DNA of 60,541 nt, the filler included, from Hausera hauseri (lineage: Eukaryota), in NCBI GenBank assembly GCA_046269625.1. It is 9 parts of 9 records of this genome, joined end to end, with 100 filler letters (N's around TTAATTAATTAA, not from the genome) between each part and the next. Parts side by side here need not be neighbours in the genome. Positions count along the whole stretch, not along the records: positions 18,674 to 24,949 come from JBJURY010118209.1; 8 more parts are not named here. The stretch is one strand, 5' to 3'. How positions within the stretch are numbered: the first letter of the stretch is position 1; the number at the start of each line of letters is the position of its first letter. The position numbers and the translations under genes were made by a program. Shown here one piece after another: positions 1 through 55,654 of the stretch. The notes under the pieces were generated by a model. The model was not told the DNA's origin, did not search any database, and saw only the letters and a list, made by a program, of their open reading frames with translations.

Positions 1-6
1 AGATAA

Positions 7-2341
7 ATCAATATCAACGAATTCCTGCAAGAAAATGTAACAGTTTTCACACCGATGTCTAAGGCAATATACCGACAAATTCATGTAGAGCTACAAGATA
101 AAGTCTGTACGGAATATAATCAAGTAGAAAAGATCCCCAACAACCTGAAAGGACTTACGGACAAAAATAGAAAAATTCGACTATATGCGATGCGGAGAGA
201 TGAAGATGCACGAGCTTATACCCTACAAAATCTGATAAAAGACGAAATTCGACACTACCGTGAAATATTTATACATCTAGCAGAAGGAGAAATTTATTAC
301 CGTATAGTCGGACAATTATGGGATGTGCAAAAAGGACGACAATACAAATTTAGTACTTTCCGTCTACGCGATAAGTGCCTCGAAAACCACGAGCTAGAAT
401 TTCGAACCGCAGCCTTACCAGTAAAAATAATGATAGAAGTTGTTCAAGAGGAAATTTCGCTCGCAATTCTACCCCCTTTAGTGTACCACCAACGACCGAC
501 AGAAGAAGAGATAGAAAACCATTTTGGATCTTATAAACTCGTCCAGGACGGACGAAATGTCCGCATCATCGCTACAAACTACGGGGAAAGCGACGACGGA
601 AATTACATACCGATCGAAGTCTCAATTCGAGATATGAACGGAGTTAGGATATATGAGAAGATCATCATACCCCGGAAAAGGGTGAGAGAAACATACGCGG
701 AAATAACCGGAATCCGAAAGGAAGATTTGATAAACGGAAGAGATATGAAACAAATAGAAGTAGAAATTAACCACTGCGTATATGGATGCATAATAGCAGG
801 TTTCCAAACTCAAACACAAATCGAGAAATTAAAAATAGATGAAAGGAATATCGCAGGAATACGAGAATTCTGGACGCACCCGAAAATAAGAGAGAAGATG
901 GATAACTTAGGCCGCCCTACTCCCATGACGATGGAAACCCAGTTCAAACGATCACAAGATCAACCGACAGCTATCCGCTTTCCAAAGAACGCAATATTTG
1001 CAGGAAAGATATATAACGTTAAAATAGAGCCATGAATGGTCTCCAATAAGCCCAAAACATAACCTACAAAGTACGATTAGTCCAAGAGAACTCAATCAAC
1101 AACACCGAAAACAGTTTTACCCATATTCCCCAGTAAGAATAGTAGAAACTAAAGGAAACAACAATATACAGATTACAACGCCCACTCAAAACAGCCCAGC
1201 TGAAATCGTTTCCTATGGATTCAACGTATCTAAAACCTCTAGAAATGAAGAGGAAGTGTTTCGTAAATCTCCACCCAAGAAACCCAAGTTAAAGGACACA
1301 CAAGAAAAAAATAAAGCGAGATCCATCTATAATTATTTATTCAAAAGAAAGGATAAAAAAGAGAGTTCAACAAATAAAAACCAGCAAAACAAACCAGGAA
1401 CATCTCACAAAAAGGAATTTCCGACACAGCGTCGAAATGAGCCCTCAATTACCGAAATAAATATTCTCAGGCAGAAAAAGAGTAAAGAGGACGTCCACTA
1501 TACCACGGAAGATCAAACAAGAATGTTGGTAACGACAGAATACTTTAGTCACAAAACAATAAAAGAAGCAACTTTTTTTGTGAAAATCACCCCAGCTCGA
1601 GAAGTACATAAAAATACATATATCTGGGAAGATCCTAAAATAGGAAAATATTTAACCGCAGTTTTCAGATCAAAAAGAACGGGAAAACTAACGGTACCAG
1701 TAGACAAGCAGATGCGAATAATCCTGAAAAAACAATACCAGAAGTATCAAATAGATGGAGAAATCTCAGATTTAGATAAAGACCTCGTCGCAGATTGGAC
1801 CCTAGTGCAAGTAAGCTGCGACCCAAGAAAGAGCTCAATTAACCCTAAACAGAAACAAATCCATGGATATTTATACCAAGATAAAGAGGAACTGGTATTC
1901 GAACCCATAGAACTCATATGTCAAGTCGACCTGGACAGAGAAAACTGGAATAAAGAAGATAATGAATGCCCAGTGTGCGAGGCAAGTTTAAAACAGGGCT
2001 ATGTAATATTGGATAACAAAGCATGCCGGCATAAATATTGTCGCGACTGCTTAGAAAGATGGACATTGGATAACGGTAAAACAACTTGTCCAGTATGCAG
2101 GGCAGAGGCCACGGAGCTTAAATACTACTCTAACGGAAATTATACTAGAATAGTCCGCATAAAGCCTCATTACAGTTATAACCTAGAAACAAACCTATCC
2201 AGGAACCAAGATACCCCAGATGATCCGTCAGATTTACAAGAACGAATGAATCGTTTAAGAAGTCCTAGACGCTTGGGCGTCACCTCTCCTGACGCAATAG
2301 GCACATCCGAGGATGCCGTTCAGGGAGGAGAAATGTTATGA
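7..2341 (+). pseudogene. LTR-retrotransposon accessory ORF (env position), copy 1: N-terminal domain, DEDDh-exonuclease-like domain, basic linker, conserved domain, C3HC4 RING; disrupted
   Basis: ORFs 55..1035 and 1256..2341 join through one frameshift (about 935-980) and a TAG at 1025-1027, where copy 2 has TGG. The exonuclease-like segment (about 553-873) reads EVSIRDMNGVRIYEKIIIPRKRVRETYAEITGIRKEDL. The RING (1967-2098) reads CPVC..CRHKYCRDC..CPVC. The region is collinear with 18797-21280. Confidence 0.8.
2322..2333 (+). promoter_or_regulatory. Polypurine tract (PPT)
   Basis: AGGGAGGAGAAA lies immediately before the LTR TG; copy 2 has the same motif at 21331-21340. Confidence 0.8.
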
Positions 2342-3083
2342 AAAACCAAATTGTAGATGAGAGTCAATTTGTAAATTAGAGAGGAAAACAAACCAGCCTA
2401 TGTAAATAATTTATTCCAATTTCATATCTATTAACTCGCTTGCTACATGTATATATTATTGAGCCATTATATCCATCTGTAAAATTATATTAGCCATTAA
2501 AAACCAACGTATATAGAAAACAAACCAAATTAACCATCGGCAATATGTAGAAAACATGATAAGCCATTTGTCTAATGAGAAGTAGTGATATATATATAAG
2601 CATGGACTGTGGAAGAAGAGACAGAAGTAGAGAAAACGAAAGAACCTCATCGACTATAGCGTTGATTTGCTGATATTACTAACGAAAAATTTGCAATCCA
2701 TTCACAACGTCAATATTGAACTATTCATCGATTGATATACGAAAGAATCCAAATTGACATTTTCCGTTAATTGTTGAGTGATTCGTCTGATCATTATATT
2801 GTGAGTATTACATCTTCTTTTAAAATCCCTAATAGTTTTCATCGGCCCTTAAGGCTGATTTGTGAGCACACTAAGTATAAATTTTGACGTAAATTATATA
2901 AGTACTAGAAACTACTAAAACCGTGCACAGGACACACACGCACTACATTCACATTCACGTAATATCGACATATTAGGCACATTCGTTTATCGAGACCGAT
3001 AAACCGAATTTGCAATAGAACAGAAATATCGAGTGTAAACTGTTATATAGCGGGAGACGTTAAGGGCCACCCAAAATATAACA
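2334..3083 (+). mobile_element. LTR (3' LTR of the exo-RING element, copy 1)
   Basis: TGTTAT...ATAACA inverted termini, preceded by a PPT, with a TATA-like run near 2590 and conserved blocks shared with 21341-22114. Confidence 0.8.
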
Positions 3084-3094
3084 CACACATACAT

Positions 3095-4110
3095 TACCAA
3101 GACTAAATTGGTGGCATACGACTTTGATATTCGTTACGTACCAGGAAAATCTATACCTCATATGGATGCACGATCGCGATTAAAATATCGAAACAAAGAA
3201 TATCAGGATTCGGAAGAAAAGCGAACAATGACTTTGTTTTTCGCGCATCCGGCCCATTTTCCGTCTTAGATGAAAAGGAAGTGCAAGAGGAATTACAAAA
3301 AGACAAAATACTAAGGAACATAATCAACCCACTCGTAATGGCAAACGGGATAAATGTTCTCAGGCGGAATTGCCCTACGAAAAGATTGTGGGAAAATTAA
3401 CCGTCGAAAATCACTTGTTGTATAATGGCACCAAGTTACTGATACCGGCCAGATTGAGTAATAAAGTATTTGCTGACTCAAAATTAACCAATCAGGAATA
3501 CAGTCAACATTACAGAGATTGCAAATAGGGCGTGGTGGCCAAATAAGATGGAGTTTGTATACAGGCAAATAAAAAATCGCAGAGCGCCAAAAACAGACCT
3601 CAGTGTGACAAAGATACGGACACCTGGCCGAAAGCAGCTCAGTTTGAAAGAATTCATATGGATTGGGCACATATAACAGACATAGGCAATTTGTTAATCA
3701 TTGTGGATGCAAGAACTAGCATCTCACTGCAACGACCACTTTATAAAATGTCAATGAACAATTTCCCCTAACTGTGGTATAGGATAATAGTCCGGAATTT
3801 GTAAGTGAAAGACTCAACGCATGCTTACGGAATCCAAGAGCGTCAAGTATGAAAACTCCTCCATATAACCACAGGTCTAATGGATCAACTGAACGGGCTG
3901 TACAGACAGTGAACCAAGCAGCAAAGGCAGGGAACTTCAATACAATGAAAATCGGTTTAAAGGAGATTCTACAAAAAATCTGTTTTATCACAGAATATCC
4001 ACAAGAACCAGAGGGCTTTTTCCGTAGAGATGGAATTCGATAATGGCACCAGTTGTGTCAAGTTCCTCACAAGGTAAAACGGTTTTCTACTGCAGTAGTG
4101 TAACATGGGC
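3095..4110 (+). mobile_element. Degenerate Ty3/Gypsy pol fragment (RNase H end plus integrase)
   Basis: LVAYDFDIRYVPGKSIPHMDA, RIHMDWAH..LLIIVDA, DNSPEF and TPPYNHRSNGSTERAVQTV appear across frameshifts. Confidence 0.8.
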
Positions 4111-4191
4111 TATCTGACACAAACATCTACCCCACTGCCGTTAATTAAATTGATTCAATAAAACAAAGTTCAGTTTGACTATTGGGTGAAT

Positions 4192-9949: not shown

Positions 9950-10600
9950 TTTCTCTAATCGATACCACCATACAATCAAGAATCCCATTCGTTGAGAGCT
10001 CGAACGGTGATGAACTGCTATGATTCGACTTCGTCACCGGGATTGCGGTTTTCAATAATTGCGCCATGTTCACATCGACAGACCAATTTAATATCGTTGC
10101 CGAGGTTGAATCTACGATACTGATAACAAACAGATCCCAAATTGTCATCTTCGTCTTCTTCAACAAAAGTATTCATATTTGTAAATGAATAAATTTTTTC
10201 CATAGAAATAACTTGCTGAATAAAATTATGATTAATATAAGTCGCCTTTAACGATAGACTCTTGGCCAAATTCAAATTGTTATTGTCATCAGTGGGTGGA
10301 TCAACTGCAGTTTCATTGACACTGACAAAATCAAAACTATTATTGCCGGACTGTTTGTCAAGGAAAAGAACGTCACCAATGCGAGTAGCAACAATATCCC
10401 ACGATTCCAGCGATCGTGAACAGCACATCAACGATGCAATTATCGTATTAGTGGCATAAACTGTGCCGGCATTGTCCTTTGTCAAATCTGGGATGACTGG
10501 ATCTTCGGTTGTCGTAACGTTGTGAATTAATTTGTTAAACAGTCTCAACTTCTGTGGATTTCTCGTAAAAATTCTGTCGTAATTTTTGTCATAATATCCA
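9950..10600 (-). pseudogene. EIF3D: eIF3 subunit D central fragment
   Basis: GYYDKNYDRI..HNVTTTEDPVI..VYATNTIIASLMCCSRSLESWDIV..LFLDK..VSVNETAVDPP..YRRFNLGNDIKLVCRCEH; truncated at both ends. Confidence 0.85.
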
Positions 10601-11020
10601 ATAAACGAAACACTTCTGCTAATCTACAACGAAATTGACTTTCAATTCGACTAAACGGCGAAGTCGAACTGGCCGAAAGATAATTTACACAAATAACTCC
10701 TTTTCGACTGGCGAGCTGCAAATAATTTGCAATTTGATCTTTCGGCAATGCAGCCAGTAGCAACTGTTCCGAAATGTCTGCTAACGACAAAATTGACATA
10801 GGATCCCCTTCAATTTCATCTCTAAATCGATACGCTTTAATTATGTTTTCCCAATTCTTTTTTGAACAATTTCGATTTCATTATTCTCGTTACTCGTTGG
10901 CGTTGTTCCATCAATTTAACGCCTTTAATTTAAGCTGGTTGTATCAATTCTTTACGAAATGCTGGATCATCTGGATGCATGTTGCAATAAGGAGAAAGTT
11001 CCGTAAATATTGCTGTTGAC
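10590..11020 (-). pseudogene. Adducin/Hts N-terminal fragment fused to the eIF3d fragment
   Basis: HPDDPAFRKEL..MEQRQRVTRIMKSKLFKKEL(frameshift)ENII..VICVNYL..ESQFRCRLAEVFRLLDI matches adducin MEQKKRVSMILQSPAFxEELE..PVNDL..EKLLRCKLAAFYRLAD. Contains a stop and a frameshift. Confidence 0.7.
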
Positions 11021-11329: not shown

Positions 11330-14300
11330 ATATGAATTGCTGCACGGAAATTTTAGAGGCGGAAGATCGGGACCCGCCTATGGGCCTTACGCGGTGGCTA
11401 CGGAGTCCCAGCTGTGTCCAACCAAATGTGCCAGAGGGCGCCGGCTGCTGTGGGTACTACATCACCCCCCCCGTGGCAAAGTGAAAACTATGAAGATTAA
11501 AACAGACGGGAATAAACAAGCGCTAAACGAAAAAGTGTATATGTCAGTTGGTCTTAGTGTGGACAAGACGTTGGGTATCTTCTATTGATTTTCCCTGCTA
11601 TATTTGCTGAATGTGACTGCGTGTTTTGCCTTTTTGCGGTGTGTTTGCTTGCAGAGGTTGAAGTTGGGGAAAATTGTCGGATTTTGTTGTGAGTGTTGTG
11701 TCATGCAAGGATGATTCAGAAAGAAGAGAAGAAGAGGGTGAAGGAGGAAGACAGATTGTTGAAGATGGATGGCTACAGGTATTCAAGAAGGTGTTGGAAA
11801 ACGAAGGAGTGACAAAAGGCGTAGTGGCGGATGAAGGAAGAGAGACGAATACTGGAGTGAAAGTTGCAACTGAATTAGACAAACGAGTGGAGGTAAAAGA
11901 TGAAACAGAGGTAGTAGTAGAAAGAGGAAGAGAGATAGAGATAGAAGTTGAGAGAAGAGGAAGTTGCCAAGTGGAAATGAAAGGAGTAAAAGGTGGTGTG
12001 TGAGGAGAGAGGGAGAAAGAAGGCGTCAAAGATGAGGAAAGTGTGGAGGGAGAAGGAGAGTGCGAGAGATGATGGCGAAGAGGTACAAAACAGAAGAGAG
12101 CAAAAAGATGGAGAAGTCGAACGAAAGTAGTTGGAAGGTGGTGTGCAAAAGGTTGGAATGATGAAAGGGGTGGATGGAGAGATTGATGAAGTCTAAATGG
12201 TGATTGATGGAGGAAGTACTGTAAATGGAGAAAGCAAGTTGAGAGAAAACGTTTTGGGAGAAAACGTAGGGGAAAGTGGATTAAGAAATTGAGCAAAGAT
12301 GGAAGGTGAATTGTTGGATTGCGCGTCGTGTGAAAATATTGATGGAGAAGTGGTTTCGATGGGAGACGTGTCGTCAATGAAGAAAGCCGGTTTAGGGTTA
12401 ATGATGTGGACTGTTACTTCTTTGCCGTCTTTGAGAATGATGATGTTGTGGGAGAGTGGACGATTTACTTTGTAAGGGCCGACATACTGAGGTTAAAAAC
12501 CACACGACGTCTGATTCTTTAGCCAAACGAACTTGGCAATATATAAATCGTCGGGAATGTAAGGTTTATTTCCGTGTAATAGTCTATAAAATGAGTCTTT
12601 GCTGATCTCAACGAAGTGTCTCTGTGCCACTTGTATGGTTTCGTCTGTAAGAATATTGTCCAGCTCAGTCAGCTTGAATAATGATCTGATAGGAGTGCCA
12701 AATAATGCTTCTGCAGGTGAACATCCTGCAGAAGTAGATGGTGTGTTCCGCCAGCCAAGCAGAACGTACAGAAGGAGTGTAGTCCAACTGCGATTGGACT
12801 CAGCAAGGATTCTGAGAGACGTTTTCATCGTTCGGTGAAAGCGTTCGAGAAGACCATTCGATTGAGGATGGTATGGTGACGTGTGAATGTGGTTAATTCT
12901 CAAGCGATTGACAAGAGCTTTAAACAGGTTGGATTCGAACTGTGGACCTTGGTCTGAAATGATGATCTAAACCTGCTGATCCAAGTGCGGATGAAAACTT
13001 ATGCGATTATTTGTGTGTTGGTGCTCCGAAGTCGGACAGCCTCTGTCCATCGCGAGGAACGGTCCATCATTGTGAGGATGAACTAACGGACGTTGTGTAA
13101 GGGTAATGGGCCTACAAGGTCAATGTGAACAGATTCGAAACGAGACGTGCAGGGGAAATGAAATACTGGTGGCTTTAGGTGCTTAGTAACCTTGTATTTT
13201 TGGCATACCACACACTGCCTATCCCATGCCTGCACGTCAGAGCGCATCGACGGCCATACTACATGCCGTTGTAAGAGTCGAAAAGTTGTCTTGGCACCGG
13301 GATGATGCAACGAATGGATGCTGTTGAATGCTTCTTTTTGAAGCGATTCAGAAAGGATGATTTTAAGATTATTAGGTTTGAAAGTGTCAAAGGCCACACC
13401 GTCGGTGGTTTTGCACGATTTAAAAGATTTAAGGATGTCAGGATGTGGCTGGTTTTGTTAATGTTTGGACTGAGGAAAAATTGGTTGTACAATCAATCGA
13501 GCTGACCGATCGGGACAAAAAGTCAACTACTAAATTTTCGACTCCGTTTAGGTGCTCAATTTGAAAATTAAATGTGGACAAATACGATATTTTCCTCTCC
13601 TGACAAGGAGAAGGTGATTTCATGGTGAGAATTTAAAGCAAGGGCTTGTGGTCAGTTTGTATTGTAAAGGTTCGTGCGGTTAAAACATACTTAAAGTGTT
13701 TTACGGCAAGGACCATTGCAAGCAACTCTCTGTCAAAGGTGGAATATCTTTTCTCTTGTGCCGTGAATTTTCGAGAGAAGAATTCTAATGGCTCATGGGA
13801 TCCATTTTTGACTTGATGGAGGACAGCACCTGCAGCTGTTGTGGATGCGTCTGTGATTAAGAAGAGTTCTGCATAGGAATCTGGATAGGCCAGGATTCCT
13901 ACGGTTGTTAAATTGTCTTTGAGGTGATCGAAAGCGTTGACTAGCTTGGCGGTCCATTGAATAGGCTGTTTCTTCTTGCCAGAGCTTAGTGATGCAAATG
14001 GAGCGGTTAGAGTGGAGCAGTGTGGAATATGCTTATGAATAAAGTGCAAGGTTTTGAGGAAATAACGCATCTCTGTTGATGTACATGGTAGCTGTATGTT
14101 TTTTAGCTGTGTTATGCGGTCTGGCTGAGGTGATTGTCCGGAGGAGCTAATAACATGTCCTAGAAAGTTGACCTTATGTTGAAAAAGGAGAATGTGGCAA
14201 AATTAATTTGCAAACTGTTTTGGTACAAGAGCTGAAAGATTAGACGTAAGTGTTCGGAGTGTTGTTTCGGGGAAGATGATGCAATTAGGATATCATCAAT

Positions 14301-17014
14301 ATAGGGATAGGCAAAGTTTAAACCTGATAGGACTGTATCGATATGCCTTTGGAAGGTCTGGGAAGCGCTACGGAGTTAAAAAGGCATGAAGAGGTATTTG
14401 AAAAGTCCGAAAGGTGTAATGACAGACGTTTTCGGAATGTTTGCTGGGGTCACCGGAATTTGATGGTATGCTTTGTGTAGATCAATGCAGGAAAAGATGG
14501 TCGAACCATGGAGCCTGTGAAGAATGTCGATGATTAATGATAGAGGGTTGGCATCCATTGTTGCTATGGAGTTAAATTGGCGGTAATCATAGCATGGGCA
14601 AAAGGTACCATCTTTTTGGAACCACATTCAGTGGTGAAAACCAGGGGTATTTGGATCTTCTGATTATTCCTGATCTTTCCAGTTTGAGAAACTCAGCCTC
14701 CACTGCCAGTCTGCGACGAAGCGATAGTGGACGGACCTTTTGACGTATTGGTCTTTGATGTTTTGTTACTATGTGATGGAAGGTGGATTGAAGTGGTACG
14801 AATGATTTGTCCTTTTGCAATAGACGTGTACAGAAAGACGAAATGTATTGTTGTAGATCAGGCGCCGACGATGAAAAGTTATCCGATGGTGTCGATGCAT
14901 CGTGACTGGATGCAGTTGAGGCATGAGTTGTAGACGAGGTGTTGTCACTGGGTGGTATTAGATGCGGGATGTTCGTGTTGAAGATGGTGTTGGCAGCTGT
15001 ATTATTAGTAATAGGTGCCACGCAGGTGGCAATATCATATTTGTCACCGTAGTAAAAATTTCTGTATAATGAATGATTATAAAAATAATTCAAATCGGAA
15101 GTCGTTTTCTTCTGTATTGACTTGCTGGAAGCGATTGCCATTGTGGTCACCGAAATGCTGCTAATTTGATTAAGATTATTTCCGCACTTTAAGGAACATC
15201 GTTTGCAGTCTACGAGTAAATTGTAGTGGGACATAAAGTCTGAACCCAATATAGGTGGGCATACATTGGCTACTGTATATTTCCATGTGAATGTGTTTGG
15301 GAAATGTGGAAGAGTAAACGTTAATTTGGTAACTTCAAAAATTTGTAAAGGTTCACCGGACGCAGTGAACAGTTGCTTTTTTGAAGTGAAATTGTTTTGA
15401 ATGGGAGTAAAGAGATTGCTGCGCTGGTGTCTATAAGAAAGTTAATGTTTTGCTTTGTTGGAGTGACAACTGCCGCTTCCAACGTAAATATAGCAAAAGA
15501 AATGTGTCGGCTATGTTTTTGCAGGTTGTTGCCTTTGATAGGACTTGCCGTGTGTCCTAGCGGCAAAATCATTTTCTGTAGCTGGTGAGTTTGGCCTACT
15601 ATTTTGTGTGAGTTTAGTAGTGTTGGTTTCATTGTGTGTGTGTTGTAGTTACAGCTAGGTAGGCATTTTTGTGCCTTTGTGCCAAATTTCGAGTGATAGA
15701 TGCAAACGATGTTACTTGTGTTAAAATCGGGGGAGTAAAATTTACAACTGATGCAGCATTTCTGAGAGTTATTACCAAATTTGTTATGGTAGTAGCAAAT
15801 AGACGACCGCATGGGCGAAGTCGACCGTTTCAGTCGTTGATTAAATACATTAGGGGAAGTAGCTCTAGAAAAACCCCGTTGAGGCAGCGTTAACTCATTT
15901 AATTTGTCGTTTATGTTGTCAATTGTTTTTTGCAGCATTTCATTTTCTGTGCGTAATTGCGCAATTTGTTGCTGCAGCATTGCATTTTGTTGTTGTTGTT
16001 GGTCCGTTGTTAATGCCGCAGAGATCTTTAATGATGTGTGTGAGTGCAGTACTTCATTGGCCTTGTCCGCCAGTTCAGTTAGCTTTTCCAGTGCCGTGGA
16101 TTCTTCAACCACGGTAAGCAAAGCTCTTATTTGAAGGGACAAGGCATTTAAAAAGTAGCGACGAAGAAGTTCTGGACTATGCTCAGATGTTACGCCAAGG
16201 GTATTGATATGAGACAAAGATGAGCGCAAGAATTTAGAAGGCTTTTGAAGGCCCATGGTGTTGTTAAAGAATCTGTGAATGATTGAATCGATTAACTGCT
16301 CAGTAAGCTTAAGAACGGCATTATAATGTTGAGTATAGGGGTCGGTGTGATGAAGGACGTCTATGATATTGGTAATTTTAGTTTTGATGGAAGCTGGTAA
16401 ATTAAAAAAAGGCTGTTGGCTTTGGATAAAAAGTCGACGACGTTCTGTGATTGGGGCCAGAATTGATGCAGTTTAGCCTAGTTTGAGTAGAGTTTTGGCT
16501 GTCGAGGAAGTATTCTGTGCAGGGTGAATGAGTGAGGAGTGTGTTGTGTCGAAGTTTTTGAAGCACATTGTTTGGGTAAGTAAGTTATAGAGATTGGTGG
16601 TTTGGTGAGTTTGTCCGTGGTATCAATTGTGGGTGATGAATCCATTCCACCACGGATACGGAAATGAATGTGAAGGCAGAAAAATGTTGTGGAAGGTTGG
16701 AGGGGTCCAGCAAAAGGCACTACAGATCCACTGTGCGTGAGACAGAAATCAGAGGAGTGAAGAGAAGTGATGATTTTATGGATGGCAGTTGTGTTTACAT
16801 GTATTACTGTATGTGTGCAAATGTATCTATTGTTTAGAAAAAAGAAAAGGAGATAAGGAGAGGTCGTGTGTCCGGGGGCGTGTCATGGTGCAGCAACGAA
16901 CGGTGCCGTCTGACCCAATGGCATAGGGTGGGCGGCGGTAATTTCAGTCTCGCCGTGACGGGCCGCAAACTGCGGGTAGCCGAGGACCCCGGTTGCAGTT
17001 CAGCGTTGACTACA
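11330..17014 (-). mobile_element. Ty3/Gypsy LTR retrotransposon, near full length, degenerate (family B copy 1)
   Basis: gag (MGLQKPSKFLR..YFLNAL..LTELADK; two CxYHxKFG..KC motifs), protease FLIDTS, RT (DLHKAYHQI, YPYIDDILI), RNase H (TDAS..DRELLA..TDHKPL) and integrase (HIDLVGPL, SNGLLERFHR). PPT at 11462-11472, then an LTR starting TGTAGT at 11461. Confidence 0.92.
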
Positions 17015-18545: not shown

Positions 18546-18796
18546 ACTTCAGCATTATATTTTACAATGGAAANNNNNNNNNNNNNNNNNNNNNNNNNNN
18601 NNNNNNNNNNNNNNNNNTTAATTAATTAANNNNNNNNNNNNNNNNNNNNNNNNNNNNNNNNNNNNNNNNNNNNTACGTCTATGATAAAATAACCTGACAA
18701 TTACAGATCGGGTTATTCTATCATCAAACAAAGAATTAATTTTGGTTCAAAATCACACTTTGTCATAAGATTAACCCTTATTATTTATATTTTAGA

Positions 18797-21280
18797 ATGG
18801 TAAGTACCCAGATCCAGAAAATGAATTCGGGAAAAGTTTGACGTAGTATCGATGACTTCTTGCAGAGCTGTGCAACGGTGTTAATCCCTCAGTCAAAATC
18901 GATCTTTCGACAAATCAATTATAAATTACAGGGAAGAAACTTTGTAGAATATAAGAAAACTAGTGAAATTCCAAATAACTTGAAACGAAGTACGGAAGAA
19001 AATAGAACCGTACGATTGTACGCAATGAGGGACGATAAATATGCACGAGAAGACTGCTTGCGACAACTCATTCAATACGAACCGGTTTATCACCAAAATA
19101 TATTTATTCATCTAGCAGATGGAGAAATCTACTATAGATTAAACGATCAAAATTGGGATACGTCACAAGGGCGACAGAGCAGATACAGTACTTTTTTAAT
19201 TAACAGCGGAGACTTTCACCACTATAATTGCGAAGTAGAATTTCGAGTTGCCGCATTACCGGTTAAACTTTTGATTGAAGTACGCTATGAAGACGCAAAA
19301 TCTATTCAATTGCCACCCTTGCGGTTTAATCAGAGGTCCACTGAGAAAGATCAAGATGACCATCTGTATTCTTTTCGGTTAGTACAAGACGCCAGAAACC
19401 CTAGAATCATATCCGTAAACTACGGTGAAAGAGATGATGGGAACGACATTCCAGTTGGAGTATCTATACGAGAATTAGGAGAATCCGAAATTTGCACAAA
19501 GACCATCAGTCCCAGAAAACGGATAAGCGAACCTTATTCAGAATTTACAGGAATCAAGAAGGAGCAATTAGTTAATGGAAGAGACATCGAACTGGTTCGT
19601 GAGGAATTGCTCCATTGTCTATACAGAAGTATACTCGTCGGATATCAGGTAGAAAAGATCATGGAAAAATTGAAGTTACTTATTACTCATATAGCAGGAT
19701 TAAGGGAAATTGAGACTCATCCTGAAGTAATGGAACAGATGAAACAGACTGTTCAAAGGAGAAACGGCTATCTACCACAGACCGTAGAAGGTCGATGTAA
19801 GTTGATGTTAGAGGCCATGAACGGAGCACATGTTCGGATAAGCCGACTGCTGACAGTAAGCCAACGCTCACAATACTTACGAGACATATATGCAGGACTT
19901 AAGTGGGAGCATGAATGTACTCACGATAATCCTAGTCAAAATTTACGAAGTTCGGCCAATCCCGAAGGATTAAGTTCCAAGCACAGAAGGCATTTCAGGA
20001 CTTATTCTCCAATTAGAACTATCGAGCTAGTACCAGGAGATAGTTATCAAGTTACTATTCGGAAGACCGAATCAGAACCAGTCACAGCGGCAAGAGAAGT
20101 AGAAAATAAACCCAGTACCAGTCGAAATTTCAATCTAGACTCAATGAAACAAAAACCAAAAAATCAAGAAACGTTTAAAGCACCTAAAACCCTGGAAAAG
20201 AATAAAGACGGCAGAATAAGGACTACATTATCCACTGGAAAAAGAAAATTATCCTTATATAAGTTCCTTTTCAAAAAGAAAAATCGGGAAGAAAATAATT
20301 GGAAAATAATTGAAATAAGACAGAATCCAAAAGGACAGAGGTCCGAAACAAAATAAAAGCAACAGAAAAAGAATCTGAAAGCACAAAAAACCCGAATAGA
20401 GCGGAAACGAAACATTCTGAAGAAATAAAAAGGAAGATTAGAATCCAACCCCAAAGGAGGAAATCCGACAACGATGTCAACACCACCGAAATAAATATTT
20501 TAAAAAAGAAAAGATCGGAAGAGAACGTCCACTTTTCGACAAAAAAATACTTTCCCAGGTTACTGGTGACCGCTGAGAATTGTAGTGATCAGAAAATAAA
20601 GGAAGAGATGTTTTAAGTAAATAGTGCTGGAATACGAGAAATCCCAGATGGAGCATATGCTTGGGCGAATTCCGAGATAGGGAAATACCTAGCTCCCATA
20701 TTTAAATCAAAAAGAACTTGTAAGTTATTTGTCCCTGTAAACAATCAAGTCAAATTGATGTTTAAGAAGCAATACCAGACATACCAAAAGACAGGTGAGA
20801 TCCCTGGTTTAGACAATGAAACAATTAGGGATTGGACATTGGTCCCCATGAATTACGACCCTAGAAAAAGCTCAATCAACATCCAACAAAAGGAGCTATA
20901 TGGCTATCTGTATTCCAATCAAGACGAACTAGTACTTGAGCGAATCCGAATTATACCTAAAATAGACCTGGATGATGAAAACACGAATGAAGATGAAGAC
21001 ATTTGCCCAGTCTGTAAGGAAAGTATATGACAGGGATACGTCAAATTGGATAATCAAAAATGCCGACACAAATATTGTAGTACATGTCTTGAGACGTGGA
21101 CTTTGGTTTATGGAAAACTACGTGCCCAGTATGTCGAGCCGAGACAAATGGTCTAAAGCACTTCTCGAATGGTGACTTTAATAGATCTGTTCACATCCAG
21201 ACCCAACCCAGCGAATAGAGGCGAATCCAGTCGATGACAGTAGTCTTCGGAGTAGACTGGAACTACTGCGACGGCATTAA
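18797..21280 (+). pseudogene. LTR-retrotransposon accessory ORF (exo-like plus RING), copy 2; disrupted
   Basis: ATG at 18797 is in frame with ORF 18860..20356 apart from one TGA. The exo-like domain spans about 19394-19710. A frameshift occurs near 20300, after which the sequence follows copy 1 to the RING CPVC..CRHKYCSTC..CPVC at about 21004-21134. Confidence 0.8.
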
Positions 21281-21340
21281 TTGGACGCCACCTCTCCTGA
21301 CGCAATAGGCACATACGAGGTGTCGCTCACGGAGGAGAAA

Positions 21341-22114
21341 TGTTATGGAATGTACATAATAGAAGTATATTACGATAGTAGTTATTAGGTGTACTGTAAT
21401 AAATTAGTTTGGAATATTAATGTGAATGTTATTTATTATTTAATTAGAAATCTTAATGATTTATGTGAAATTTTCTGTATATCTGAAATTAGAAAAATCT
21501 GAAGAAATGCATAATAATCGACTACAATATTAGATAATCGAAATAATGAAATTTAATCTGTAAATAATCAATGAAAATGATGTAATCATCGGAAACTACC
21601 AGTATATATAGCGACCGAATTTTAGAATAAATCAGAACTCTTCGGAGTTAGACTCCAACGAGAAACTGAGCGAAAGATTCCAAAGACTTTCAGATTCAGT
21701 AGAGTGAGATAACAGAAACAAGGAAGACTGTCGTTGTGATATCGACTGTTGCGAAACTTCAGAGAAATTGATTGTCGACGATCGTAACGAACGATTGAAA
21801 ATTTTGTGCGAATTTGATAACAATTATAATTTAGTTTTTAAATCGTCTTAACTTCTATAGTTTTCCATCGATCCTTAAGATCGATTTGACTACACTAGGT
21901 CGATAAAATTTTACGTAATTTATATAGTTAAGAGGGAGCTCGTATTAACTATTGCACAGGAATCGCACAAAATACCTGCATTTATTAACGTTATAAGTCA
22001 TAAGGTACATCCTGATTTACCGAGAACGGTAAACCGCACCTGTTACCAAAAATAAGTGATTAAAACTATTGTTATATAGCGGGAGACGAGCAGGCCCCAT
22101 CCCAAAACATAACA
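21341..22114 (+). mobile_element. LTR of the exo-RING element, copy 2, with PPT upstream and PBS downstream
   Basis: TGTTATG...CATAACA termini, PPT GGAGGAGAAA at 21331-21340, and a TATA-like run near 21603. Confidence 0.88.
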
Positions 22115-22116
22115 AT

Positions 22117-22133
22117 TGGCGACCCTAGCAGGA
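22117..22133 (+). promoter_or_regulatory. Primer-binding site, probably tRNA-Arg
   Basis: TGGCGACCCTAGCAGGA starts 2 nt after the LTR end. Its complement ends in CCA and resembles the tRNA-Arg PBS TGGCGACC...CAGGA of 412/mdg1-type elements; the tRNA identity is inferred. Confidence 0.7.
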
Positions 22134-22524
22134 CAGTTTGTACCTCGCTAGACTACTACTTCAGCAGAGAATTTATTAAAGCAACATACCCGCGATCAGC
22201 GCATCGACACCAATTAATTGAACTGACTAGAATATAAAATTCGGGATATAAGTTCCTATATTTAAATAAGTGGGTTTTAAAGCACAAATATTGACAGGCA
22301 TAGTAGATCTAAACAATTGAACCTTAACGGTAAAGAGAATTCAAACTTAAGACGAACCCGTAGTAGAGCAAAAACAAACTCAAAGGAAAAGCGTTTATTA
22401 TCTTTAGTCACGCGTAAATCTAACAAATTTATCAGACCAGGATCAAGAAGTAAACTTCAAAGTTCCACCTAAATTAAGTGAACGACGCAAAATAGAAAAT
22501 ATAGCCCACGCAAATACAAATAAA

Positions 22525-24949
22525 ATGGCAGTTGTAATACCACAGCCAGACGGAAGCTGGACATTTTTACGTATGAGTCGTTGAATTTACCGGCATACGA
22601 CTGTGATCCGGAAGGATTAATTGAATTTCTCAAAACTTATAAACTTCACGCCAAAGGCATAGGACTAGAACCTCAACATATGATTAGACGATTATCACTT
22701 TATTTAAAGAATTTGGCCGCAGATGCCTATGCAGAGCTGACGGACGAAGAAAGGAGAGATTGGACATCGTTAGTAGGAGCATTAAATAGGAAATTATTGC
22801 CGACAGTAACCCCACAACAAAAGTTGATGGTGTTTTAAAATAGGACGCAACAGAAGGTAGAATCGGTTACCCAGTTTGCGTTTGCCTTAAAAAAAATTAG
22901 CAAACAGTTATATCAATACAATGAGAATTTCGAACGTGGCCAAGGCAAAAGATGAGGCCGAACGGTGAGCTGCGGAAAATGCAGTCCCGTCAGATTTGGA
23001 CGTAATGATGACAACACAATTAATTAATGGTATTTGGTCAACAGACCTGGTGAAACAATAATTTCTGGCGAGACCAGAAAATTTTGAGAAAACATTGCAA
23101 CTAGCACAAGAATTAGAGATGGCGCCAGACAGATATGCTAGGCAGAATGAACGTTACGCCGAACGGAACGAGCGTAGCAATAGAAATAGAAACATTGGAC
23201 GATTCCAAGAAAGCGGTCGAAATCGGAACTACGATATTAGGATGGATAGGAACCCATGTTACGAGAACAAAAATTTTAATTATAATCGGAACTCAAGCAA
23301 TGCGAATATGAAGCCGAATTATAGCTCGAACCAAGATGGTTATAAAAACAATAACAAAAGTTTCAAATACAAAGATGGAAATAGATAAAATGATTTTAGA
23401 AGCGATAAAAACAAAATTAGTAGAAATATTCAATTAGAATCCTCAAATCCAGGTTACTCTAGGAACTCGTGCTGGTCAAAATCGCCCATAAACGAAGACG
23501 GCAAACAACGGGTTGGTATAAACGGGAATTTGATATGCTATATGTGTGGCAAGGAAGGCCACATAGCAAGATCATGTCCGAATCCTCGAAGCGTTTCGTT
23601 TACCGAACCTGCTAAAGTAAAAATGATTAAAACACAAGAAGATTTAGAGGCAAAATATGGCCCAGAGGTGAGAGACGCAATTTTGTATATTCAAGATTCA
23701 CGAAGATACTTGAAAAGTCAAAGAGAAACTAATAACCCGCAAATACTGAAGTCTCGAAAAGAGTATGAGGATAACGTACAAATATTAGAAGTGTGTCATG
23801 GATTAGTTGAACCTCGAACGGAATACAAATACTTGCTGTCACCCGATAATAGTAATATGGTTCGCAAGATGAACGTGCCTGTAAAACCCGTAGGCACAGA
23901 AGAGGCAAGCGAAGTTGAAGTAGCATTGACATCGTCCAGCATAGACTTGGACGCTGAATCTAAAAACTCGACAGAAGGACGTCGCGATATCAGTGATGAG
24001 ATTAAGAGTGAGTATATAGCTCCATTAGTGCTTAAAATAATGAAGAATAGAGGTCGTAGTCTATCAATTAAAAGGAGACAAAAGGTCGATTAAGATCACC
24101 ATTAGAAAGAGACAACGTAGGAAAAACCGACTTCCAATATGTTGACGTAGAGGACAACCCGAGCTTTAACACTTCAGACGTGGAGCTTACCGAAGTTTTA
24201 GATACTCCAAGTACAACCGTAACAGTAGGAGACGCGAACAGCGAAATAAATGAGATATGTTCACTACCCAATAGTGAAGACGAAAGTGATGGCACAGGAC
24301 GAGTTAAAAGACTCGACGGGAAGATGTGGAGGATCAAAAAGTCATAAAGAAATGCAGATAAATTAAAAGAGATTAGGACAGTCCTAACCGATCCAGAGAC
24401 GATACGTCGTAATCTCGAGGAATTGGAGTATATAAAAACTCAAGTAGATGTGTCCGGAAAGGAGCAACAATTTGGGGAGAAAATGTACAAAGAATTTAAA
24501 CGGTACATTGAGGAAGATTTTAGAAGGGAGAAAGAACAGGAAGAATTGAATGAAATTGTGGAGAAATCAATTGAAGACAAAACTAGACTCACGGATAAAA
24601 AGCGGAATCTACTTCACCGACACATGGAATAATCAAGAGATAGAAATTAAAAGTAAAGTGTCAACTGACCAAGGATTACTAAAGACGTTAGAGACGGATC
24701 CAAAACAGAAGCGAACAAAACGGAATTTATAGAAACTGATGACCGAGATAGAAAATGCAGTAATCTATCACCTTAAAAATAAACCGATAAACAAATTAAA
24801 TGAAAACGAATTCTTAATACTAGGCATAAAACCTGTAGATGTTTCTCTCGTAATGGAAATATGTAAGTTCGCGTTCAACGCGCCTAAAGAATACGCAGAT
24901 ATAGGAATCCGCACAGCCTCGCAAGATAAAAGACGCTCCGAAATCTACA
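22525..24949 (+). mobile_element. gag of the exo-RING element (degenerate) with CCHC knuckle and long extension
   Basis: Capsid-like LSLYLKNLAADAY..WTSLVGAL..Q-K-ESVTQFA; N/R-rich linker; CYMCGKEGHIARSC at about 23536-23577; runs into the contig end. Confidence 0.82.
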
Positions 24950-30506: not shown

Positions 30507-33500
30507 TACTCCCCCGATTTTAATACAAGCAACATCGTTTGCATCTATCACGCAAAATTTGGAACAAAAGCACAAAAATGCCTGCCTGACTGCAACTACA
30601 ACATGTACAATAAAATCAACACTACTAAACTCACACAAAATAGCAGGCCATACTCACCAGCTACAAAAACTAATTTTGCCGCTATGACACACGGCAAGTT
30701 CTAGCAAAGACAACAGCCTACAAAAAGATAGTCGACACATTTCCTTTGATGCATTCACGTTGGAAGCAGCAGTCGTCACTCCAACAAAGCAAAACATTAA
30801 TTTTCTCATAGACACTGGCTCAGCAATCTCTTTACTACCACCAAAACAGCACATCCAAAACCATTTTATTTCAAAAAAGCAACTGTTCACTGAGTTCGGT
30901 GAACCTTTACAAACTTTTAGTGTTACTAAATTAACTCTCACCCTTCCGAATTTCCCAAACACATTCACTTGGAAATTTACAGTAGTCAATGTACGCACAC
31001 CTATATTGGATTCAGACTTTCTGTCCCACTACAATTTACTTGTAGACTGCAAACGATGTTCCTTAAAGAGCGGAAACAATTTTAATCAAATTAGCAGCAT
31101 TTTGGTGACCACCCGGGCTACCGCTTCCATCAAGTCAATGCAAAAGAAAACGACTTCCGATTTAAATTATTTTTATAATCATTCGCTATACAGAAATTTT
31201 TATTGCAGCAACAAATACGATATTGCCAACTGCGTGGCACCTATTACTGATAGTAGAGCAGCCAGCATCATCTTCAACACGAACATCCTGCACCTAATAC
31301 CACCTTGTCACGACATTTCGTCTACAACTCATACCTCTACTGCATCCAGTCACGATGCATCGACACCATCTGAAAACGTCTAATTGTTGCCCTCTGACTT
31401 ACAGCAATATATTTCGTCTTCCTGCACGCGTCTGTTGCAAAAGGACAAATCATTCGTACCACCTAAATCCACCTCCCATCACATAGTAACAACACATCAA
31501 ATACCAATACGTCAGAAGGTACGCCCGCTATTGCCTCGCCGCAGACAGGCAGTGGAGGCTGAGTTTCTCGAACTGGAAAAATCAGGAATAATCAGAAGAT
31601 CCAAATCCCCCTGGTCTTCATCACTGCATGTGGTTCAAAAAAGATGGTACCTTTCGCCCATGCGGTGATTACTGCCAACTCAACATCATAACAACAATGG
31701 ATGCCTACCCTCTACAATTAATTAACGATATTTTGCACAGGCTCCATGGTTCGACTATTTTTCCCTGCATTGATTTACAAAAAGCATACCACCAAATTCT
31801 GGTGGCCCCAGCGGACATTCCGAAAACGGCTGTCATCACACCTTTCGGACTTTTCGAATAACTTTTCATGCTTTTTGGACTCCGTAGCGCTTTCCAGACA
31901 TTCAAAAGCATATTGATACAGTCCTCTCAGGTTTAGACTTTGCTTATCCCTATATCGATGATATCTTAATTGCATCATCTTCCTCGAAACAACACTCCGC
32001 TCACTTAGGTTTAATCTTCCAGCGCTTGCACCAAAACAACTTGTAAATTAATTTCTCCAAATGCTCATTTTTCAACATAAGGTCAACTTCCTAGGACATG
32101 TTATTAGCTCCTACGGACATTCACCTCAGCCAGAGCGCATCACACAGATCAAAAACATACAGCTACAACGTACATCAACAGAGATACTTTCTTTCCTCGG
32201 AACCTTCCACTTCATTCATAAGTATATTTCACACTGCTCCACTCTAACCGATCCATTTGAATCACTAAGCTCTGGCAAGAAAAACTGCTTATTCAATAAA
32301 CCGCCAAGCTAGTTAACGCTTTTGATCACCTCAAAGATTATCTAAAAGCGTGGAAATCCTGGCCTATCCCGACTCCCACACAGAACTCATATTAACCAAG
32401 GATGCATCTACAACAGCTTCAGGTGCTGCCCTGCATCAAGTCAAAAAAGGACCTCATGAAGCATTAGAATTCTTTCATCGAAAATTCACGGCACAAATGC
32501 AAAGATATTCCACCTTTGACAGAGAGTTGCTTGCAATGGTCCTTGCCGTGAAACACTTTAAACATCCGCTAACCGTACGAACCTTTACAATACAAACGGA
32601 CCACAAGCCCTTGCTTCAAATTCTCACATGAAATCGCCTTCTCCACGTCAAGAGAGGCAAATATTGTATTTGTCCACATTTAATGTTGAAATTAAGCATT
32701 TAACGGAGTCGAAAATTAATAGCCGAATTTTTGTCCCGATCAATCAGATCGATTGATTTTACACCAATTTTCCCTCAATTCAAACGTCAACAAAACCAGC
32801 CACCTCCTGACATACTTAAATATTTTAAATCGTGCAAAATAATCGATGGTATGGCCTTTGACACCTCCAAACCTAATAATCCTAAAGTCATCCTTTCTGA
32901 ATCGCTTCAAAAGAAGCATTCAACAACATCCATTAATTGCACCATCCTGGTGCCAAGGCCACTTTTCGACTCTTACAACGCCAAGTAGTATGGCCGTCGA
33001 TGCGCTCTGACGTGCAGGCATGGGTTAGGCACTCTGTGTCATGCCAAAAATACAAAGTTACTATGCATTTAAAGTCACCATTATATCATTTTCCCTGCAC
33101 GTCTCGTTTTGAATCTGTTCACATTGATCTTGTAGGCCCACTAGCCTTAGATAACGGCCATCAGTTCATCCTCACAATGATGGACCGTTCCTCGCGATGG
33201 TCAGAGGCTGTCCGGCTTTGGAGCACTAACACAGAAACAATCATAGACGCTTTCATCTGCACTTGGATCAGCAGGTTTGGATCACCTTGCCACATCATTT
33301 CGGACCAAGGCACACAGTTCAAATCCAACCTGTTTAAAGCTCTTGTCAATCGATTGGGAATTAACCATATTCACACGTCATTATATTATCCTCAATCGAA
33401 TGGCCTTCTCGAACGCTTTTACCGAACGATGAAAACGTCTCTCAAAATCCTTGCTGAGTCCAATTGCAGTTGGACTACACTCCTTCCGTAAGTTCTGCTT

Positions 33501-34905
33501 GGCTGGCGGAACACACCATCTAATTCTACAGGCTGTTCATCTGCAGAAGCATTATTTGGTACTTCTATCAGATCATTATTCAAGCTGGCTGAGCTGGACA
33601 ATATTGCCACAAAGGAAAACATACAAGTGGCACAGAGGCACTTCGTTGCGATCAGCAAACACTCATTTTGTAGACTATAACACGGAAATAAACCTTACAT
33701 ACCCGACGATTTATATACTGCCAAGTTCCTATGGCTAAAGAACCAGACGCCGTGTGGTTTTCAACCTCAGTATATTGGCCCTTACAAAGTAATTCGTTTA
33801 TACTCCCACATCATCATCATCCTCAAAGACAACAAAGAAGTAACAGTCCACATCAGCAACGCTAAGCCGGCTTTCTTCATTGACGATACGTCTGCCATCG
33901 AAACCACTTCTCCACCAATATCTTTACATGACACGCAGCAATCCAAAAATTTACCTTCCATCTCTGCTCAATTCTTTAACCAACTTTCTCCTACGTTTTC
34001 TCCCAAGACTTCTACTTCAATTTCTTTTGACAGTTCAGCCCCTTTTCCCCATCCGATTTTGCACCTTTAAGCCTTTTCACACCTACTTCATCCCTTGCTG
34101 ACAAAATTCTTTCTCCTTTTACAAGACCTCCTCAGCCAAACACCACTTCGACTTCACCAATCTCTCCATCTTCTTGCCCTCTTCCGTTTTATCCCTCTTC
34201 GCAGTTTTTCCTCTCTTTTTCTCTCTCCTTCCACACCTTCCTCATCTTCGGCGCTTGCTTGCTTCCTCCCTCCTCACACATCGTCTTTTACTCCTTTTAT
34301 CTCCGCTTCGCAACTTCCTCCTCTCCCTACTTTTATCCCCATTTCTTTTTCCCTCTCTACCACTACCTCTGTTTCATCTTGCACTTCCACTCTTTCGCCT
34401 TATACCATTCCAACTTCTACTCCACTATTCATTTTTCTTCTTTCATCCGCTACTACACCTTTCATTGTCCCTTCGTCTTGTAACACTCTCGAATACCTTT
34501 AACTATCCCTTTTCAACAATCTCTCTTTCTCCTTCACCTTCTTCTCTTCATTTTGACTTGTCTTCGCACAACACAACACTCACAAGAAAATCCGACAATT
34601 TTCCCCCAACTTCAACCTCTGCAAGAAAACACACTGCATAAAGACAAAACACACAGAGTCACATTTAGCAAGTATAGCAGGGAAAAATCAATAGAAGGCA
34701 CCCAACGTCTTGTTCACACTAAGACCAACTGACACAGTCAATTTTTCGTTTAGCGATTTTTTCTTTCCGTCCAGTTTGGTCATCATAGTTTTCACTTTGC
34801 CACGGGGGGTGATGTAGTGCCCACAGCGGCCGGTACCCTTTGGATCATTTGGTTGGGCACGGCCGGGCATCCATCGCCGCCGCGTTGAGTCTATAGTCGG
34901 GCACA
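30507..34905 (+). mobile_element. Ty3/Gypsy retrotransposon (family B copy 2): gag end, PR, RT, RH, IN, PPT, truncated LTR
   Basis: Collinear with and closely similar to the reverse complement of 11330-15740; FLIDTGS, YPYIDD, HIDLVGPL; PPT GGGGGGTGA then TGTAGT at 34813. Confidence 0.92.
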
Positions 34906-39000: not shown

Positions 39001-40494
39001 TCTGAATTTAAATTAAAAGCAAATTTAAATGTTAAAAAATTCAACCATGAACTTAATTTAAAAATGTCATTAAAAGTTTATTTTAATTTTGGAATTTCGG
39101 GAAATTTGTTTCGAAATGAGTATTTTAAGATAATAATAAAATTTTCAATAACTGGTGTTAACTTTGCAATGAGCAATTACAAACGATCAAATTCTGCTTT
39201 AGCGGACATACCAGAGGGCGGGGATTTTTCAACCTAAGCCAAGTTGGGCGACGATGTGGACGGCGTGGATGCGCCCGAGGCCAACAAGAAAAAACTAGCG
39301 CTTGACATCATTGAACTTTCTCGCTACATCTTTTGTTATTAAAAGATGTAATTCTCCTTAATTATATCATTTTATCTGATGATAGTCTGTGAAACGCCCG
39401 AAGCATATTGAGAAAATAAAATTTGAAAGTCGAGTTCCAGGTTTTTACAAACTCTAATCTAGTAAAATTTTATTAACCAATATTATTTTACATAAATAAA
39501 ATAACTTTCGATTTTATTTTCATTCACAAAATATATCCTATTTAAAATATACACATTAATGGGATCCATATTTGGTAAATCGTCGTCATCGGAAATGGAA
39601 TTCGAATTGCCATATACGAAGGAAGATGTGAAACAAAATTCAAATTCAGTCAGACAATATTGCGCTGAATATCACAAATACATGGAACTAAGAAAACAGC
39701 AATTGCTATACTCAGATAACAATTTAGAATTAAAGATCATTAATAAATGATTGTGACTGAAGTTTTCTGTTTTNNNNNNNNNNNNNNNNNNNNNNNNNNN
39801 NNNNNNNNNNNNNNNNNTTAATTAATTAANNNNNNNNNNNNNNNNNNNNNNNNNNNNNNNNNNNNNNNNNNNNGTAACTTTGGATTGCAGTTGAGACATT
39901 TCTGTGAAAAATTAGCATACATTTACTTATGTAAATTATATAACTGAAGTGTGATCATTTAAAGGACGTCTAGAAATGAATTACTTTTGAATTATTCTGG
40001 TTGATAACACATTCAGCACCCCAGTTACTCTAAACATCCAAATTAATACATGATATGGTTACGTGTGCTTTTAAATTGACTAAAGTTGTAAATGTGTTTT
40101 TTTTTTCTTGTTTGTTTTGGTGCCTGATTTGTGATGGACCGGCAGTTTTTCTGCTTGTTCCACCTAATTGACAAGCAGACAATTTCCAGCTGAAGTATTG
40201 GAATAAAAAGAATTCTGTAAAGATGTTTTTTCTGTTATTTAACACCTCAGATAAAGATGAACTTTGAACTCCTCACAAAGACTGCAGAAGCAAATCTACA
40301 GTAGAATTAATTATTTCAACATGGACCATAATGTTTGCCTGGCTTCACAATGGAGAAAATATTAAATAATTTATTATGATGAATTCACATTTTAATACTG
40401 ATCAAACTTTGCTGGTGTTAATATTTTATTACTGTTGTACTTTGAAGCCACGGATTGAAACTTTCTCTCTGTGTTCCTCCTTTTTGTGTTTCAG

Positions 40495-45689: not shown

Positions 45690-46460
45690 CTGTCCTCTTT
45701 CATTATGAAGCCATGCTGTTGTAACGTGCAGAATGTGGCTTTGAATTGTCTTGCTGAATTAAGCAGGGATGTCCCTGAAAAAGATGTGGCTTGGATGGCA
45801 GCATATGCTGCTCCAAAACCTGTATGTACCTTTCAGCATTAGTGGTGCCTTCACAGATGTGCAAGTTACCCATGCCATGGAGACGAACACACCCCCATAC
45901 CATCAGAGAGGCTGGCTTTTGATCTTAGCTTTGATAACAAAACAGACAGACTTTTTCCTCTTTGGCCCAGAAGACATGATGCTCATGATTTCCAAAATCA
46001 TTTTGAAATGTGGACTCGTCAAACCACGGGACACTTTTCCTCTTTGTATCAGTCCATCTCAGATGAACTCAGGCCCAGAGAAGACTGCAACATTACTTGG
46101 TGTTGCTGATATCTGGCTTTGGCTTTGCATGGTAAAGTTATACCTTGACTTTTAAATGTAGCTTTGAACTGTTGTCACTGATTCTGGTTTTCTGAAGTGT
46201 TCCCGAGACCACGTGGTAACATTCATTACAGAATAATGTTGGTGTTTAATGCAGTGCTGCCAAAGGTCACGGATATTCACTGTTGGTTTTCAGTCTTGCC
46301 ACTTGCTTGCAGAGACTTGTCCTGATTCTCTCATCTTGATGATATGTAGACTGTAAAAGATAAAATCCCTAAATTCTTGCAACTAAACATTGAGAAAAGT
46401 TGTTCTTAAACTGTTGGACTGTTTACTCAAGCAGTTTTTCACAAAGTGGTGAATCTCAAC
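45690..46460 (-). mobile_element. Tc1 transposon remnant (teleost type)
   Basis: MVWGC..GMGNLHICEGTTNAERYIQVLEQHMLPS..QQDNSKPHSA. Confidence 0.85.
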
Positions 46461-52329: not shown

Positions 52330-52500
52330 AGGATTGGACAGAGGTGTCCAGAGGACATCCTTACCAGATGACTGAACCACCTCAACTGGCTCCTCATGAT
52401 GTGGAGGAGCAACAGATCTCTATCAAGTCTCTCCTGTATAACTGGACTTCTCACTCTACCTCTAAAGGCCCCTGCATACTCCATCCGAACTGGCGAAATG
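52330..52500 (-). mobile_element. RTE (Rex3/Expander-like) LINE fragment in an intron
   Basis: RVRSPVIQERL..LLLHIMRSQLRWFSHLVRM. Confidence 0.7.
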
Positions 52501-55640: not shown

Positions 55641-55654
55641 CTGCCATCTAGTGG
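55641..55654 (-). promoter_or_regulatory. CTCF-like motif upstream of the TBC gene
   Basis: CCACTAGATGGCAG matches the CTCF core consensus; this is a sequence match only. Confidence 0.4.

Follow-up and report, generated by a model that had tools for sequence, protein, structure and literature searches.

We sought to determine whether the exonuclease-like domain encoded in two gypsy-type element copies of Hausera hauseri is catalytically inactive, and what the protein that carries it might still do. The window analysed was a 60,541-nucleotide stretch of assembly GCA_046269625.1, made of nine pieces joined by artificial N-flanked spacers, across which adjacency has no meaning. Copy 1 of the gene lies in piece 1 (1-4191) and copy 2 in piece 4 (18674-24949, JBJURY010118209.1). 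A first-pass annotation had described a captured domain of the ISG20/REX4 type, dead in both copies, and its motifs were found where it had placed them, IISVNYGERDDG and GYQVEKI in copy 2 and IIATNYGESDDG and GFQTQTQ in copy 1. The encoded protein begins with an oxygenase-like barrel, followed by the exonuclease fold, a linker, a middle domain of no assigned family and a RING finger. Its parts and surroundings are listed below.

18848..19297, + strand: copy 2, N-terminal double-stranded beta-helix domain (2OG-oxygenase/AlkB-like fold; model residues 1-150)
19397..19918, + strand: copy 2, predicted ISG20/REX4-type DEDDh fold without all five catalytic residues (model residues 184-357 aligned with ISG20 6-178)
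19412..19420, + strand: copy 2, ExoI position, S-V-N for D-x-E, IISVNYGERDDG (S at 19412, N at 19418)
19427..19438, + strand: copy 2, acids of E-R-D-D, placed where beta1 ends and in its turn to beta2 (DSSP strands 185-195 and 200-209)
19640..19660, + strand: copy 2, ExoII position by alignment, GYQVEKI for GHxLxxD/E
19850..19867, + strand: copy 2, ExoIII position, LTVSQR for HxxxxD (L at 19850 in the H position, R at 19865 in the D position)
19930..20553, + strand: copy 2, K/N-rich linker, poorly conserved (29% identity to the relative P0002)
20554..21000, + strand: copy 2, conserved middle domain (47% identity to P0002; in-frame stop at 20614-20616)
21004..21197, + strand: copy 2, C3HC4 RING finger, interrupted by a stop at 21028-21030 and by a frameshift near 21114-21117
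21331..21340, + strand: copy 2, polypurine tract, read from sequence
21341..22114, + strand: copy 2, LTR with 7-base inverted ends (TG...CA), both ends aligning with the copy 1 LTR
22117..22134, + strand: primer-binding-site-like motif (TGG...) 3' of the copy 2 LTR, read from sequence
22524..24090, + strand: broken gag of the next element, with a CCHC knuckle (zf-CCHC E 6.5e-6; gag of locus L006 E 4.5e-7)
7..1024, + strand: copy 1, barrel and dead DEDDh domain, with a stop at 1025-1027 after a frameshift that lies between 948 and 956
1028..2341, + strand: copy 1, linker, middle domain and RING, in an ORF that crosses the polypurine tract and ends in the LTR
2334..3083, + strand: copy 1, 3' LTR, read from sequence, followed by RNase H/integrase remnants

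A profile of the two copies matched, among solved structures, PolC exonuclease (E 1.9e-5), SDN1 and ISG20L2, and a 36-row family profile matched ISG20L2 at 2.8e-27 and ISG20 at 1.3e-16. The Atlas returned RNase_T clusters with a top score of 0.90, used as a lead only. A structure model calculated from the 36-row family alignment without templates reached a pLDDT of 85 and a pTM of 0.81, while a model from the two sequences alone was unusable (pLDDT 37). The best match of the family-based model was ISG20 (Foldseek E 7e-8; VIA Z 18.7, rmsd 2.5 Å, 157 aligned residues), and the domain is accordingly modelled as a five-stranded DnaQ-like DEDDh fold of the ISG20/REX4 type. Profiles and model agreed on this scaffold, and the family alignment bore out the ExoI register that had been proposed for it.

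The two-metal site of ISG20 is built from Asp11, Glu13, Asp94, Asp154 and His149 (PMC9157404). Model residue 184 aligns with ISG20 residue 6, which would place S189 and N191 on Asp11 and Glu13 provided that the first strand has no gap. In the family alignment S/A-x-N replaces D-x-E without a gap relative to intact members, in a register that agrees with the model offsets; a register with N as the first D was rejected because it contradicts both the family alignment and the structural offsets. The catalytic columns D, E, D, H, D read S, N, I, L, R in copy 2, A, N, Q, L, R in copy 1 and A, N, M, L, C in P0002. At ExoI, copy 1 has A-T-N (IIATNYGESDDG, A at 571 and N at 577) and P0002 has A-I-N. 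The ExoII acid is replaced by I in copy 2, by Q in copy 1 (Q at 817 in GFQTQTQ) and by M in P0002. The ExoIII H-x4-D has become L..R in both copies and L..C in P0002, the copy 1 residues (L 971, R 986) being read in another frame, past the frameshift. ExoIII falls outside the interval 19394-19710 in which the domain had been annotated, and which covers the front of the DEDDh domain.

If the acids of the GExDDG segment had taken over as metal ligands, as had been raised against the proposed inactivity, they should occupy the metal site. They lie instead in the hairpin after beta1, off the ligand positions as judged from strand placement with inferred distances; they vary in intact members, and only one E of the hairpin is common to copy 1, copy 2 and P0002. 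Structure and family alignment thus find the four acids and the histidine all replaced, in line with the claim that both copies are catalytically dead, and the domain is predicted to be inactive at ExoI, ExoII and ExoIII. The ECHC zinc motif of Maelstrom was absent among the invariant columns and no Maelstrom Pfam match was obtained in the 36 rows; judged by its residues, the domain is neither a member of the Maelstrom family nor an active DEDDh enzyme.

P0002 is an unbroken ORF of 870 amino acids that runs from the barrel and the dead nuclease through linker and middle domain to the RING, and a C3HC4 RING motif therefore stands in the same predicted ORF as the dead fold. The RING is also unbroken in copy 1, in its second frame. 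The linker of copy 2 contains a frameshift, with the frame changing between 20317 and 20554, and the stop in its middle domain is at 20614-20616. Frameshifts and stops are at different places in the two copies, both of which are broken and probably make no protein now. The middle domain had no match in Pfam or the Atlas. A splice start at an ATG-GT (18797-18805) with an acceptor at 18865 was considered for copy 2 and dropped because it would skip the IDDFLQ stretch, whose protein sequence both P0002 and the fragment P0003 preserve.

The barrel model (residues 1-150) matched Ofd2 (Z 9.9), ALKBH6 (Z 9.8) and ALKBH7 (Z 9.1). No conserved HxD..H metal triad of 2OG-Fe(II) oxygenases was found in 29 family rows, and the barrel is best described as a 2OG-oxygenase-like fold that lacks the triad expected of an active oxygenase. 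The barrel's IPNxLK motif is kept across the same 29 rows, together with an Arg in 83%, a His in 79% and a D/E in 93% of them. By strand order the conserved residues would lie on neighbouring strands and may form a non-canonical pocket, in intact and dead members alike.

In both copies the gene lies directly 5' of a polypurine tract and a TG...CA LTR, which makes it the last ORF of a gypsy-type element. The PR-RT-RH-IN region expected upstream would lie beyond the ends of the window pieces; such a region is present at 2 of 13 loci of intact relatives. The copy 1 LTR is followed by RNase H/integrase remnants with no primer-binding site 3' of it, so this copy was likely inserted into another gypsy element. 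The element downstream of the copy 2 LTR is either a tandem neighbour or one joined by the assembly. The metagenome locus L006 (1344-6784) and the window (19025-24090) have the same order of exonuclease gene, non-coding stretch and gag; tandem elements with a common LTR, a circle or an assembly join are alternative accounts of it.

We searched 1.84 billion representatives with the family profile and obtained 56 matches. Their barrel domain or their place in the tree assigned 33 to the element family; of the others, 18 were treated as host REX4-like, 4 are tandem-domain proteins and 1 is spurious. A word-based search returned nothing with copy 2 and, with the family profile, only two rows, both already known; IMG/VR gave no locus and phages no match. 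The 43 rows that were scored comprise the 33, the two window copies and 8 proteins from the 13 loci, some being near-copies of one another. All five catalytic residues (D or E at ExoII) are present in 26, 16 are dead and 1 is truncated. The four tandem-domain proteins (P0004, P0005, P0022 and P0031; 733-804 aa) hold several REX4-like domains, most without catalytic residues, and have hydrophobic N-termini that look signal-peptide-like by eye; they are possibly secreted pseudonucleases of another kind.

The 13 loci came from two metagenome data sets that were scanned by intact-site patterns, so that only intact members could be found. Two of them (L001 and L004) have an env-PR-RT-RH-IN ORF just upstream, one (L005) has a TRAF gene upstream, one has a gag downstream and two have a purine tract and TG downstream; the others are too short or unmarked. 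In L001 (2-9037) and L004 (1-9621) the upstream region is a single ORF of more than 3000 aa in which a Monjiviricetes-type fusion glycoprotein precedes PR-RT-RH-IN. The TRAF-like gene of L005 (640-1845) is complete, with RING, zinc finger and MATH, and lies upstream of the intact exonuclease gene.

This distribution bears on the term captured, which did not hold. Intact members stand behind the env-PR-RT-RH-IN polyproteins of Burro-like elements, many members of the family are intact, and a long branch with 100/100 support separates the element family from the host REX4-like rows. The nuclease is thus a long-standing gene of these elements that lost its activity inside the family, and not a fresh host capture. 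Catalysis was lost either once or several times. A tree of the exonuclease domain alone needs one loss change (support 52/70, with long branches meeting; 10 short or odd rows left out), and a two-domain tree needs four, with a single clade not rejected (p-AU 0.275; 7 rows left out). The RING was present in 1 of 63 proteins, P0002, and apart from it was seen in the two copies alone; the other dead members are therefore without it, and the dead fold can do without a RING.

The inactivation had been held to be ancestral, and the clade bears this out. P0002 and P0003 have the same A-x-N at ExoI, and together with both copies they form one clade (SH-aLRT 98; 96/97 for the three full rows). Since all five residues are lost in both copies and in the unbroken P0002, the loss predates the decay of the copies. 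Between the cores of copy 1 and copy 2, pN was 0.28 and pS 0.90 over 116 codons, with codon-position identities of 0.62/0.78/0.37; synonymous sites are saturated and the core proteins are 52% identical. Identity to P0002 is 45-52% in the core, 46% in the barrel, 47-50% in the middle domain and 29-30% in the linker. Because pN is below pS and the core is better conserved than the linker, the protein remained under selection after catalysis was lost. The fold was, on these figures, kept without its catalytic residues under a relaxed constraint that is weaker than in intact pairs: core identity in the dead clade is no higher than barrel identity (0.40-0.57 vs 0.43-0.54, 6 pairs), whereas in 6 intact pairs with barrel identity of at least 0.33 the core lies 10-36 points above the barrel. 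The ExoIII part is the least conserved (26-33% identity to P0002). One public run, possibly the one from which the window derives, contains many divergent copies, with 3536 contigs matching piece 4. On 19385-19570, 31 differences were listed for 26 contigs of this run, of which 12 are silent and 19 non-silent, including one stop. The N codon was free of differences, and the S codon is probably too close to the edge for reporting. These differences fit decay of the copies and carry little information on selection.

Since the fold stayed under selection after the loss, it likely acts by binding, probably to RNA, and not by cutting. We tentatively propose, at a probability of about 0.4 and largely by analogy, that RNA is bound, without metal, by the dead fold, which would thereby steer the RING of the same protein to RNA-protein complexes. 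The ISG20/REX4-type fold would bind RNA without metal instead of cutting it, the bound fold would bring the RING finger to such complexes, the RING may act there as a ubiquitin ligase, and the target could be a host silencing or surveillance complex. The Arg of a P-R pair after beta3 is kept in 3/3 clade rows, 11/11 other dead rows and 23/26 intact rows, while host REX4-like rows mostly have other residues at this position (commonest T, 45%); the Arg of G-I-R is likewise kept in the element family. In both copies the second acid position is taken by N and the fourth by R, P0002 having C at the fourth. PML also has a RING. Inactive Bombyx Maelstrom, described with N124 and R306 in its pocket, binds single-stranded RNA (PMC4408791), and the PML pseudo-exonuclease is reported to bind G-rich RNA and DNA (PMC13659232). 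Several observations speak against the RNA-adaptor reading, namely the neutral charge of the domain (28 K+R and 27 D+E in copy 2, 26 and 25 in P0002), the missing ribose contact, the C of P0002, the relaxed constraint, the weak ExoIII part and the dead members that are free of a RING. The ribose contact of ISG20 is made by Arg53 to the 2'-OH (PMC9157404); its position is Y in both copies and P0002, and intact element members also lack the Arg.

The same neutral charge, with the ribose and phosphate contacts of ISG20 lost and a core conserved no more than other folded domains, would suit a protein-binding scaffold or substrate adaptor with no RNA role, as would the TRAF/MATH ubiquitin-pathway genes of related elements (L005; PMC6431247). 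We regard such a scaffold as possible and rather doubtful, since two arginines are kept in intact and dead members and the characterised DEDD pseudonucleases, Maelstrom and the PML PXL, bind nucleic acid as far as described (PMC4408791, PMC13659232). The domain might also be a vestige, kept folded only by its place between needed domains or by packing on the barrel. The relaxed constraint and long branches of dead members, the weakly conserved ExoIII part and the possibly several separate losses (four changes in the two-domain tree) are what a vestige would leave; but surface arginines are kept, protein identity is 52% where synonymous sites are saturated, and no full-length dead member with the domain deleted was seen, in a search that could return only proteins resembling the domain. 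This makes a vestige distinctly unlikely.

Residual cutting through other residues is very improbable. One hairpin E is invariant in both copies and P0002, and fly Maelstrom reportedly has a DEDD-independent RNase activity; but the four acids and the histidine are all replaced, the hairpin acids lie off the ligand positions, the E is missing in other dead members, and a single E cannot hold two metals. Equally little credence goes to a decoy, an idea of the first-pass annotation for which we found nothing in support; it would draw partners or substrates away from a host REX4/ISG20-like nuclease. Its appeal is that ISG20, the closest solved fold, is described as antiviral (PMC9157404), but the nuclease from which the domain descends was the element's own, with a long 100/100 branch to the host REX4-like rows, and the domain's 13% identity to ISG20 leaves little for mimicry. 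The RNA-adaptor reading can be extended to a wider and unlikely one, in which env-bearing gypsy elements carry a hitherto undescribed pseudo-oxygenase and DEDDh gene that is an active nuclease or, following a single loss or more than one, a pseudonuclease, and the dead form, having acquired a RING in this lineage, would be an element-encoded RNA-guided ubiquitin ligase against host silencing, the mirror image of PML.

DEDD pseudonucleases are known as host proteins, and exonuclease ORFs are known from rotifer LTR elements; exonuclease is listed among the known accessory domains (PMC6338049). The gene resembles ORF3 of the bdelloid gypsy-type elements Juno and Vesta, a DnaQ-like exonuclease gene behind pol, described as of the DEDDy/RNase D type with invariant residues intact (PMC5408684). 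The window gene differs in being of the DEDDh ISG20/REX4 type, fused to a barrel, dead in this lineage and accompanied by a RING. The intact relatives resemble the giant planarian gypsy elements Burro/GYPSM1 in the fusion glycoprotein in frame ahead of PR-RT-RH-IN at L001 and L004 and in the TRAF/MATH gene at L005 (PMC6431247), and their polyproteins share the layout of GAG-ENV-POL elements (PMC13524379); this likeness is one of the relatives' layout, the window itself containing no pol or env of its own elements of this kind. The accessible text of these two sources names no exonuclease gene for either group, the word exonuclease occurring twice in the searched Burro text, both times for Terminons (PMC6431247), and not at all in that of PMC13524379. 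The orchid Ty3/gypsy AlkB ORF is also a 2OG-oxygenase fold in an extra ORF and is described as an active m6A demethylase (PMC9289625), whereas the window barrel lacks the metal triad and is fused to a nuclease fold.

Among host proteins, the closest solved folds are human ISG20 and ISG20L2 (1wlj, 7yw5), at 13-18% identity and with the catalytic residues that the window domain lacks. The MAEL domain of metazoan Maelstrom is likewise a DEDD fold that is dead or active by lineage, with N and R in the pocket; unlike the window gene, Maelstrom is a host piRNA factor with an ECHC zinc site, an HMG box and measured RNA binding (PMC4408791). The likeness is a fold-level analogy, and RNA binding by the window domain is inferred. 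PML-1 PXL is a dead DEDDh domain with active relatives and a link to ubiquitin-proteasome action on a retroelement protein, but belongs to a host restriction factor related to Plex9/TREX1, whereas the window gene is encoded by the element (PMC13659232, PMC10123124). Exuperantia is a distant fold match only (Z 10.2). In the full-text literature searched we found no description of env-bearing gypsy elements with an ISG20-type gene that is joined to a pseudo-oxygenase and comes in both an active and a dead form; a prior annotation in Repbase, the primary Burro paper or supplements is possible. For the rotifer LTR-element exonuclease genes, sites are reported intact and no function is shown in the text available (PMC5408684). 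Natural active and dead versions of one two-domain gene make it possible to ask how a nuclease benefits its element and what outlasts cutting. Should the dead version prove to adapt a RING ligase to RNA, animal retroelements would have in it a candidate protein for counter-defence.

Elsewhere in the window, 10021-10623 (- strand) holds an unbroken piece of the host eIF3d gene (E 1e-65) with a gypsy element nearby, and another broken gypsy element is present in two copies about 87% alike (11467-15635 and 30607-34809). Integrase core and chromodomain remnants at 57099-58021 are presumably Polinton-like. The piece at 39874-56203 differs by eye from the other pieces in look.
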